Part shown: one piece after another, positions 9,512-10,576 of the stretch | How the letters are laid out: every line of letters starts with the position of its first letter | Position numbering within the stretch: the stretch's first letter is position 1 | Virus record (IMG/VR): IMGVR_UViG_3300043811_000163 | Span: 56,534-88,533 of that record | Length of the DNA: 32,000 nucleotides | Strand: one strand, 5' to 3' | From: a virus | Translations under genes and position numbers: made by a program | The notes under the pieces: generated by a model | Told to the model about the DNA's origin: nothing | What the model saw: only the letters and a program-made list of their open reading frames with translations | Databases searched by the model: none

Positions 9512-10576
9512 TCACATGCTGAGCGGTCGATAGACCGGTTTGCCGACGAGCTTTCGTAGAAGCTCGTCAAATTCTTCGTGCAGTGCCCAGGCATCATCGG
9601 GTCGCGCGCTCTGTTTGGCAAGCATGGACCCGGAAAGAAATGCGCGCACGTGCTGCGGACAGGATCCGTTGGTCCCGAGAAGCCCGCGCATCAAGGATGC
9701 CGCCATGAAAATGTCCGTCTGGGCCGTCGCCGGTTTCTTGGCTCGGACCTCGGGCGGGTATGCAATCGACTTGTCGCTCGAGATGGCTCGGATCGGTTTG
9801 CCGACCTGGACCGAGTGGCACCAGTCGATCAGTTTCGCCCCGTGCCTTGTCGGGTGAACCACCACGTGCGCGGGCAAGACGGAGCCGTGTACGAGAGATT
9901 GCCGGTGAACGAAACCGAGCACCATCAAAAGCCGCTTGAACATCCAGGCCATGTCGCGAAAGTCGAGACCCCCTGGGTACTTCTGCTTGACCTCGGCGAG
10001 CGTGACGTAGCCTTCGGCCTGCCTGATGACATTCACCCGTCGAGGTTTCCCCGGGCCTTTGCCCCTCATCGTGAACGAGTCGAGCAGCTTCGGAATGAAG
10101 CGATGGTAGTCGCCATCGCCCTTGAGCTTGTCGAGCGCTTTGGCCTCAGTCTCGAGCAAGTCGTTGTCCGCCGAGCTCCGCGCGATCTTGAAGACCGATG
10201 GGTCACCGCCATCGAACGAGCACGCATAGAGAGCGGCGATGTCGCCGGCTGCGAGAAGGTCTCCCACGACGTACCGGCGTGTTTTGGTCTCCACGATCGA
10301 CGGGAATCTCGCTGCGGGCTCGACGTGGGGAGCGCCGTTTCCGTACGTGCCGGCCGCGATCTTCTTTTCGGCTTGCGTCTTCCAGACATTGAGCATCGAG
10401 AGGCACTCGGTCGCCAGCAAGGACGCGCCCCCGTGACGATCAGGATGCACTGCGGCAGCGATTCGATGCCACTCCTTGGTGAGTGCGGCAAGATCCGCGA
10501 TCGTACCGAACACGTCCTCGGGCGCTTTTGCCTGAGAAAGGACGCGGTGCGTGGCCTGTAGATCAAGAACGCTCAC
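9512..10576 (-). CDS. J-domain fused to a protein-kinase-like domain with a degenerate catalytic loop
   Basis: The GTG at 10576 forms a GTGA overlap with the upstream stop. HPD tripeptide at 10439-10447 within a J-like helix pattern. Kinase-like VFKIAR / LLETEAKAL / VHGSVLPAH / LIDW. Confidence 0.75.
   Translation of the reverse strand: MSVLDLQATHRVLSQAKAPEDVFGTIADLAALTKEWHRIAAAVHPDRHGGASLLATECLSMLNVWKTQAEKKIAAGTYGNGAPHVEPAARFPSIVETKTRRYVVGDLLAAGDIAALYACSFDGGDPSVFKIARSSADNDLLETEAKALDKLKGDGDYHRFIPKLLDSFTMRGKGPGKPRRVNVIRQAEGYVTLAEVKQKYPGGLDFRDMAWMFKRLLMVLGFVHRQSLVHGSVLPAHVVVHPTRHGAKLIDWCHSVQVGKPIRAISSDKSIAYPPEVRAKKPATAQTDIFMAASLMRGLLGTNGSCPQHVRAFLSGSMLAKQSARPDDAWALHEEFDELLRKLVGKPVYRPLSM

Follow-up and report, generated by a model that had tools for sequence, protein, structure and literature searches.

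To our knowledge, GAK/auxilin-2 is the only well-known protein that joins a kinase fold to a J domain. Kinase folds that have lost the Asp of the HRD motif while keeping the Lys–Glu pair are known from pseudokinases, e.g., the JH2 domain of JAK (with HGN in place of HRD), HER3 (HRN) and STRAD-alpha, which serve scaffold or allosteric roles. Loss of both the HRD Asp and the downstream Asn is typical either of pseudokinases or of enzymes repurposed for non-phosphotransfer chemistry. As to gene organization, MoxR AAA+ ATPases act together with von Willebrand factor A (vWA) proteins on enzymes such as Rubisco (CbbQO) and NO reductase (NorQD), and the TerY-P triad reported by Anantharaman et al. 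in 2012 is said to consist of the vWA protein TerY, a Ser/Thr kinase and a PP2C phosphatase. Here we analyse a gene in a 32,000-nucleotide stretch of the IMG/VR virus record IMGVR_UViG_3300043811_000163 (the whole stretch is called the window below), which encodes an N-terminal J domain fused to a Hanks-type kinase fold without catalytic Asp, Lys and Asn, i.e., a J-pseudokinase. The gene belongs to a conserved three-gene cassette together with a vWA-fold protein and a divergent PurA-like GTP-dependent ligase.

The J-pseudokinase resembles GAK, a NAK-family kinase, in that the best PDB fold matches of its structure model include AAK1 and GAK, and the best match of its N-terminal profile is auxilin. 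However, there are important differences between the two. First, the J domain is N-terminal here, so that the domain order is reversed, and neither a PTEN-like nor a clathrin-binding region is present. Second, GAK is catalytically active. Third, the identity amounts to 13–16%, and PknB, PknG and Aurora score nearly as well. Homology to GAK/auxilin was rejected on the grounds of this identity and the reversed order, which point to convergence. With JAK JH2, HER3 and STRAD-alpha, the protein shares an intact fold, a retained beta-3 Lys and alpha-C Glu, and a lost catalytic base; it differs from them in belonging to a prokaryotic and phage family, in its HGAxLPxH/DW signature, in the fused J domain and in its fixed operon partners.

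The pairs of MoxR-type AAA+ and vWA proteins (CbbQ–CbbO, NorQ–NorD, RavA–ViaA, BchI–BchD) likewise place a vWA protein with a metal ion-dependent adhesion site (MIDAS) beside a remodelling system and the enzyme that it services, and NorD is among the fold matches of the vWA protein of the cassette. However, the cassette contains no AAA+ protein, and its motor would have to be the host Hsp70, reached via the J domain. Membership in the MoxR–vWA group was rejected, since no AAA+ family is conserved at the 116 loci compared. The TerY-P triad is similar in coupling a vWA protein to a Hanks-type kinase-fold gene in a context of nucleotide-like metabolite synthesis, but the cassette has no conserved phosphatase, its kinase is disabled and its third partner is PurA-like. 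Membership in this triad was rejected as well, as no phosphatase occurs among those loci and the kinase lacks its catalytic residues. GAK is thus the nearest architectural analogue, and TerY-P and MoxR–vWA are the nearest genomic analogues, each of them failing a defining feature. The NAD+ reconstitution pathways of phages (NARP1–3, of which NARP2 consists of NAMPT and NMNAT) are also comparable, in that several jumbo-phage cassettes lie between genes for NAMPT and an NMNAT-like protein, behind an NrtR-like gene; the copy in the window, in contrast, has neither NAMPT nor NMNAT next to it. NARP3 consists of PnuC and an NadR-like protein, and the published NARP1–3 have no PurA-like, vWA or kinase-like component (PMC13464706). 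NARP3 as the identity of the cassette was rejected on account of that composition. The cassette looks like an undescribed system.

A J domain fused to a kinase fold without catalytic residues

The domain calls rest on family profiles and structure models, single-sequence searches being uninformative. When a profile of the N-terminal 86 positions was compared with the PDB, it matched J domains only (8e-7 to 1e-3), including those of auxilin (8e-7), P58IPK (2e-6) and E. coli DnaJ (1.2e-5). A Pfam scan of 26 individual homologs found DnaJ in 15 (best 5e-6) and Pkinase in 21 (E ≤ 0.01). An AlphaFold model computed from a 100-sequence alignment of homologs reached a predicted local distance difference test (pLDDT) score of 95.9 and a predicted template modelling (pTM) score of 0.82. 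It places the HPD tripeptide in the loop between helices 29–43 and 49–75, followed by a bilobal kinase domain. In the same alignment, HPD, K130 and E144 are invariant. A preliminary description of this DNA had proposed a J domain fused to a kinase fold, and both halves prove genuine by the family profiles and the model. Its positions for HPD, HGS, VFKIAR, LLETEAKAL and LIDW were all reproduced by translation. A significant J-domain match for the N-terminus is provided by the family profile and the Pfam matches of homologs, whereas the protein of the window taken singly gives none.

A Foldseek search with the model returned AAK1, GAK, PknB, PknG, Aurora and Pim1 at E ~1e-12. In a phmmer search against the PDB, the stretch lvHGSvlpaHvvv...LIDW of the J-pseudokinase pairs with imHRDvkphNvmi...LIDWG of CK2-alpha; the aligned stretches read LVHGSVLPAHVVV...KLIDW in the window and IMHRDVKPHNVMI...RLIDWG in CK2-alpha. 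The family profile aligned in the same register to the SR protein kinase Sky1, at the top of a list that includes PAK and StkP. The CK2-alpha alignment thus fixes the canonical register, in which HRD has become HGS, the catalytic-loop Lys has become Leu, Asn has become His, and the DFG Asp is kept. The preliminary description had left room for a catalytic Asp and Asn in a shifted register. However, neither an Asp nor an Asn occurs between H230 and D251, so that no shift of register can restore the catalytic residues, and the PDB alignments are canonical.

The preliminary description had read the loss of the HRD Asp and Asn from a single sequence; as a census of 112 homologs, pulled independently from genomic loci, makes clear, the loss holds family-wide. 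The His of HRD is present in all 112. The HRD-Asp position holds Ala in 107, Ser in 2, Asn in 2 and Cys in 1, and never Asp. The catalytic-loop Lys (K168) position is occupied by Leu, Val, Ile or Thr, and the catalytic-loop Asn position by His in 110 and Asn in 2. The DFG Asp is likewise replaced in some members, and its Gly variants occur in several independent lineages, both phage and Actinomadura. Meanwhile, H230, G231, P235, H237 and H245 are at least 98% conserved, and the APE Glu E276, the alpha-F Asp D288 and the subdomain-XI Arg R325 are conserved as well. The Gly-rich GxGxxG loop is missing; the corresponding segment reads AAGDIAALY, of which only G111 is kept, with a conserved Asp next to it. 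The spacing of H-x-x-x-x-P-x-H equals that of HRDLKPEN in Ser/Thr kinases, so that the ancestor was a Hanks-type kinase. Operationally, a pseudokinase is a kinase fold that lacks at least one of the Lys, the HRD Asp and the DFG Asp, and this family combines a kinase fold with the absence of the catalytic Asp across orthologs. The loss of catalytic residues is thus a family trait under purifying selection and not decay.

Conserved partners and the NAD/ADP-ribose setting

The J-pseudokinase gene rarely occurs without its two partners. The three genes lie within 5 kb at 35 of 38 loci, a set that includes phage Catera, two actinomycete chromosomes, two long metagenome contigs and 31 IMG/VR loci. 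At bacterial loci, the trio is present in 79 of 80 cases, 69 of them in the order NrtR-like > J-kinase > vWA > PurA-like. When 80 IMG/VR loci, out of 345 matched contigs, were anchored on the vWA gene instead, a PurA-like gene was found at 77 and a clear kinase-like gene at 61, with a divergent member in the same slot at 11 more. The link to the vWA protein, which the preliminary description had suggested, therefore has strong genomic backing (35/38, 79/80 and, counting the divergent members, 61–72 of 80 loci). All-versus-all clustering of the open reading frames (ORFs) at 116 loci left only four conserved families, i.e., the NrtR-like, kinase-like, vWA and PurA-like proteins; no Hsp70, AAA+ protein or phosphatase is among them. 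In the window, the 15-nt gap between the J-pseudokinase and vWA genes carries an AAGAAGG Shine–Dalgarno-like motif, and 3 nt separate the vWA stop from the PurA-like start. Identities of the kinase-like, vWA and PurA-like proteins are 44, 57 and 63% at locus L006, 39, 54 and 46% at L007, and 36, 38 and 36% at L001. The kinase-like protein is thus less conserved than the vWA protein at the loci compared and less conserved than the PurA-like protein at most, and this tendency to be the least conserved of the trio fits an adaptor.

The vWA protein has no Pfam match, yet it is highly conserved, with more than 4,000 homologs at 55–70% identity. Its model (pLDDT 88.8) has a Rossmann-like vWA fold and matches integrin I domains, vWF-A and NorD in Foldseek, and D71, T73 and S75 of its MIDAS, a DxSxS-type motif, are invariant. 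The N-terminus M-G-(S/G)-(S/G)-x-(W/Y)-S is universally conserved, and the C-terminus ends in x-R-L-COOH (ERL in the window) after a low-confidence stretch (pLDDT < 50) which, judging by the model, is probably flexible. Both terminal motifs are kept from mycobacteriophages to actinomycetes, irrespective of a J domain in the partner. A test for co-variation of the x-R-L tail with the J domain of the partner found none.

The PurA-like enzyme shares its fold, GTP site and catalytic residues with PurA and PurZ. It is nearest to E. coli PurA (4e-35) and keeps the GDEGKG P-loop as well as the equivalents of His41, Gln224 and Asp333. However, its substrate site is rebuilt. In all 35 cassette homologs examined, GTTGRGIG has become GSCGMGIGE, V273 has become His, and the aspartate-binding GATTGRRRRTGW loop (TTGRRRR) has become GxW-QGxFRxG, with W-QG-FR as its core. 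Because the aspartate site is rebuilt, the amine substrate is probably not aspartate. The enzyme scores far under the NCBIfam cut-offs, with 154 bits versus 402 for PurA and 37 versus 300 for PurZ. Identity with PurZ of the Z-genome pathway was rejected on this score and because no PurZ structure appears among the PDB matches. The PurA-like protein is thus neither a standard PurA nor PurZ.

The main clue to function is the context of NrtR, NAMPT and NMNAT genes. The gene upstream of the bacterial cassettes encodes a protein with NUDIX and WHD_NrtR domains, and these NrtR-like proteins match the NCBIfam model NF050029, 'ADPR responsive transcriptional repressor', at 3e-31 to 2.5e-52. Within ~110 bp upstream of the nrtR-like gene, 66 of 69 loci (within L040–L118) carry a 15-bp palindrome resembling TTCTC-N5-GAGAA, mostly as a pair with the copies 16 bp apart, against a background of 0.02 per 320 bp. 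The paired palindrome is probably the operator of the NrtR-like repressor and indicates an autoregulated operon. No convincing copy of the TTCTC-N5-GAGAA site was found in the window. On a 764-kb contig and several jumbo-phage contigs, the cassette takes the order NrtR-like > NAMPT > vWA > PurA-like > kinase-like > NMNAT-like, or NrtR-like > NAMPT > NMNAT-like > J-kinase > vWA > PurA-like. At loci L006, L009, L030, L031 and L035, the cassette is interspersed with genes for NAMPT and for NMNAT-like proteins, although the latter are only weakly assigned (TIGR00482, 3e-6 across ~50 residues). As a whole, then, the fusion, the residue loss and the vWA link of the preliminary description stand, whereas the third partner, the PurA-like enzyme, and the connection to nicotinamide adenine dinucleotide (NAD) and ADP-ribose had been overlooked.

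Possible roles of the cassette

It is somewhat probable, in our judgement, that the J-pseudokinase is a non-phosphorylating adaptor which brings the host DnaK to a vWA/PurA-like complex of NAD or purine nucleotide metabolism. The N-terminal J domain would bind to the Hsp70 of the host (DnaK), whose ATPase it would set off via the HPD loop. The kinase fold, which would have given up phosphotransfer while keeping the Lys–Glu pair of an active-like conformation, may act as a specific binding or switch module, possibly one that binds a nucleotide via this pair. As a subunit of a co-transcribed and translationally coupled module with the MIDAS vWA protein and the PurA-like ligase, the pseudokinase would connect to the vWA/PurA-like pair, with DnaK being recruited by the J domain as an ATP-driven remodeller. 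By analogy with the MoxR AAA+/vWA systems CbbQO and NorQD, the metal site of the vWA protein may serve to hold an acidic element of the target. Such an arrangement could help the PurA-like enzyme complex to be assembled, activated or recycled. From the neighbouring genes we infer that the module takes part in NAD/ADP-ribose-linked nucleotide metabolism and that, in actinomycetes, its genes are controlled by an autoregulated, ADP-ribose-responsive repressor of the NrtR type.

Several observations weigh against this adaptor. First, the J-pseudokinase of the window, searched alone, has no Pfam match at E ≤ 1, i.e., no significant DnaJ or Pkinase, and its only J-type match is HscB at E = 0.15. Second, the J domain is not universal. 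In a census of tblastn-anchored ORFs, HPD stands at the correct distance in 78 of 78 bacterial homologs with a recognisable loop; among viral and metagenomic homologs, it is present in 18 of 34 and absent in 16. Most of these 16 begin at the kinase N-lobe, and one has HED instead. A J-less subclade is found on IMG/VR jumbo-phage contigs (L011, L018, L020, L024–L027, L030, L031, L035 and L037), mostly in the order [NrtR > NAMPT >] vWA > PurA-like > kinase-like > NMNAT-like, and its members keep HGAxLPxH and (I/L)(I/V)DW. Since about half of the phage homologs in one clade are without the J domain, DnaK recruitment is not the universal function of the family; since the J-less forms stay in the cassette, it is the kinase-like domain that forms the constant element alongside the vWA and PurA-like proteins. 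The J domain is therefore an add-on to a core kinase-like role, retained in most lineages. Third, the cassette brings no Hsp70 of its own, and the partner chaperone has to be assumed to be that of the host. Fourth, NrtR, NAMPT and NMNAT genes are all missing beside the cassette in the window. Finally, H230, H237, H245, H224, K130 and E144 are so strictly conserved that they might just as well form a non-canonical active site.

This last point leads to the alternative that the kinase-like domain is a non-canonical active enzyme. Like SelO and SidJ, two pseudokinases that lack the HRD Asp and yet catalyse other chemistry, it would be an atypical kinase, an AMPylase or a different kind of nucleotide transferase. 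Its target could be the vWA protein (at the Ser/Tyr-rich N-terminus or the C-terminal tail), the PurA-like protein, DnaK, or a small NAD-related metabolite, with the J domain positioning DnaK as helper or substrate. We judge such an enzyme unlikely, in spite of the near-invariance of K130 and E144 and a conservation of at least 98% at H230, G231, P235, H237 and H245, which goes beyond what a dead site needs. The His at the Asn position and the DFG Asp could still hold a metal, and the cassette is nucleotide-centred (PurA-like, NrtR, NAMPT, NMNAT-like). However, the DFG Asp is Gly in 10 of the 112 homologs, in phage as well as Actinomadura lineages, suggesting that Mg-ATP binding may not be essential; the Gly-rich loop is cut down to a single Gly plus Asp; and the kinase-like protein tends to evolve fastest of the trio. 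In addition, very divergent low-GC phage versions (L181 with 28% GC, L187 and L192 with 50% GC, and L198 with 37% GC) keep the HPD J domain but have quite different kinase loops, reading HLGLNPTTVF with ISF, or HGDINKH with DGW, or having no His loop at all. The DFG-Gly members and these scrambled loops argue against hidden catalysis, and catalysis looks dispensable.

A wider pathway, which we offer tentatively and regard as doubtful, would build on the adaptor. The cassette would then be an undescribed ADP-ribose-responsive pathway, in which a GTP-dependent PurA-type ligase with a rebuilt amine site carries out new chemistry and a DnaK-recruiting pseudokinase assembles or regulates it. The ligase might join a purine- or NAD-derived nucleotide to an amine other than aspartate, perhaps to the N-terminal Gly that is invariant in the vWA protein. 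Phages would use the pathway to sustain or rebuild adenine and NAD pools in the face of NAD+-depleting immunity, and actinomycetes would switch it on when ADP-ribose accumulates. If this is true, phages carry the cassette, often with NAMPT and NMNAT, against NAD+-depleting immunity.

It is quite improbable that the J domain works for the phage without involving the gene neighbours, by capturing or redirecting DnaK for replication or morphogenesis or by switching off the heat-shock response of the host, the kinase fold being no more than an appendage for stability or targeting. It is known that phages rely on DnaK and DnaJ, and the gene of the window does lie in an early replication/recombination operon. 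However, at least 561 bacterial species have the same architecture in stable chromosomal operons, which are controlled by an NrtR-type repressor and lack any phage context; the vWA and PurA-like genes accompany it almost obligatorily; and versions without a J domain remain in the cassette. Finally, a conventional Ser/Thr kinase phosphorylating host or phage proteins in infection, as the names in SEA-PHAGES and phrog_3043, the Pkinase matches of homologs and the fold matches to active kinases would have it, is very improbable indeed, because the base Asp, the catalytic-loop Lys and the metal-binding Asn are gone in essentially all members, no register shift restores them, and the GxGxxG loop is missing.

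Distribution, annotation and the locus in the window

The gene family as such is already catalogued, as phrog_3043 and as the 'serine/threonine kinase' pham of Bixzunavirus in SEA-PHAGES. Among 203 matches in phage records, 201 are to Mycobacterium phages (Bixzunavirus/cluster C, ~154 kb), whose proteins are 36% identical to the J-pseudokinase over 96% of its length and are annotated 'serine/threonine kinase'. In phage Catera, gp249, gp250 and gp252 represent the same three families in the same neighbourhood, which is that of the C1 mycobacteriophages. A word-indexed metagenome search returned 185 homologs, and an exhaustive profile search at E ≤ 1e-30 returned 1,630 representatives of 50%-identity clusters. 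Homologs occur in at least 561 bacterial species genomes, mostly of Actinomadura, Spirillospora, Streptomyces and Micromonospora and also of Labilithrix and Chloroflexota, as well as in many jumbo phages.

Full-text searches of the literature turned up no account of the J domain, the missing catalytic residues or the cassette. The sole trace found is a genome announcement that lists a 'serine/threonine kinase' and a 'PurA-like adenylosuccinate synthetase' among the conserved phams of C1 mycobacteriophages (PMC9476963). The cassette is not mentioned in a review of viral NAD/ADP-ribose systems (PMC9503650) or in a review of the NrtR regulon (PMC2330246). With PADLOC, the kinase-like protein gave only generic kinase-domain matches (MkoA, PD-T4-6 and mad6) and the vWA and PurA-like proteins gave none, suggesting that the cassette is not a catalogued defence system; a BFVD fold search gave generic viral kinases only. 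As far as we could find, the fusion of a J domain to a pseudokinase is undescribed in bacteria and phages.

The annotation of this family, everywhere, as an active Ser/Thr kinase is a mis-annotation. Hsp70 owes its specificity to J-domain proteins, and pseudokinases are well known as scaffolds; the fusion joins both. It comes with a vWA partner that is highly conserved without having a Pfam model, and with a PurA-like partner whose substrate site is rebuilt. Control by an ADP-ribose-type repressor and the embedding in NAD salvage point to uncharted NAD/purine metabolism in the conflict between phage and host. Direct study of the cassette is feasible in Streptomyces and, using Bxz1-like phages, in Mycobacterium smegmatis.

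Table 1. Features of the J-pseudokinase cassette, in positions of the window
Feature	Position	Strand	Remarks
J-domain/pseudokinase ORF	9512..10576	(-)	354 aa; GTG start 10576; stop codon 9512-9514; phrog_3043 'kinase' E=1.2e-47
J domain, residues 1-80	10337..10576	(-)	helix II 29-43, HPD loop, long helix III 49-75
HPD tripeptide H44 P45 D46	10439..10447	(-)	translation; 100-homolog alignment
Hanks-type protein-kinase fold, residues ~91-354 (~90 in places)	9515..10306	(-)	without catalytic Asp, Lys, Asn
Beta-3 Lys K130 in VFKIAR	10187..10189	(-)	K in 111/112 homologs
Alpha-C Glu E144, second E of LLETEAKAL	10145..10147	(-)	E in 112/112 homologs
Pseudo-catalytic loop H230-G-S-V-L-P-A-H237	9866..9889	(-)	replaces HRDLKPEN; family consensus HGAVLPxH; HGS = 9881-9889
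DFG-equivalent D251-W252 (LIDW)	9821..9826	(-)	Asp in 102/112 homologs, Gly in 10
Downstream partner 1, vWA-fold protein, 330 aa	8504..9496	(-)	phrog_2971 E=1.7e-61; structure model
MIDAS-like D71-V-T-G-S75 of the vWA protein	9272..9286	(-)	
Downstream partner 2, divergent PurA-like GTP-dependent ligase, 420 aa	7238..8500	(-)	Pfam Adenylsucc_synt 1.8e-56

The GTG start adopted in Table 1 overlaps the TGA stop of an upstream 147-aa ORF (GTGA, 10573–10576) and agrees with the N-termini of the closest homologs. Two further starts are open, namely an ATG at 10591, which was the choice of the gene caller (359 aa), and a GTG at 10630; the J and kinase domain calls are unaffected by the choice among them. 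The phrog_3043 profile matches the J-pseudokinase at full length, over residues 11–342.

The copy in the window lies within a phage replication/recombination operon, with flanks at 11704–15133 (-) and 21711–27414 (+), on a source contig of about 98–113 kb. The surrounding genes encode an HNH endonuclease, a RecE/YqaJ exonuclease, a phrog_3657 protein, a DnaD-like loader, a primase, a DnaB helicase and a large DNA methyltransferase. The genes from ~14426 down to ~6483 appear to form one long minus-strand operon. Directly upstream of the J-pseudokinase, the 147-aa ORF overlaps a 149-aa ORF at 11013–11462.

At the other end of the cassette, the PurA-like gene is followed at 6483–7286 (-) by a gene for a Cys-rich protein (CPECGG...CPVC and CxC motifs) with a C-terminal coiled coil, which is not conserved at other cassette loci. 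Lineage-specific genes directly follow the PurA-like gene elsewhere too, i.e., one of 667 aa in Actinomadura (locus L002, 11453–13456) and one of 372 aa on a 536-kb phage-like contig (L007, 9546–10664); these two are not conserved across the family either.

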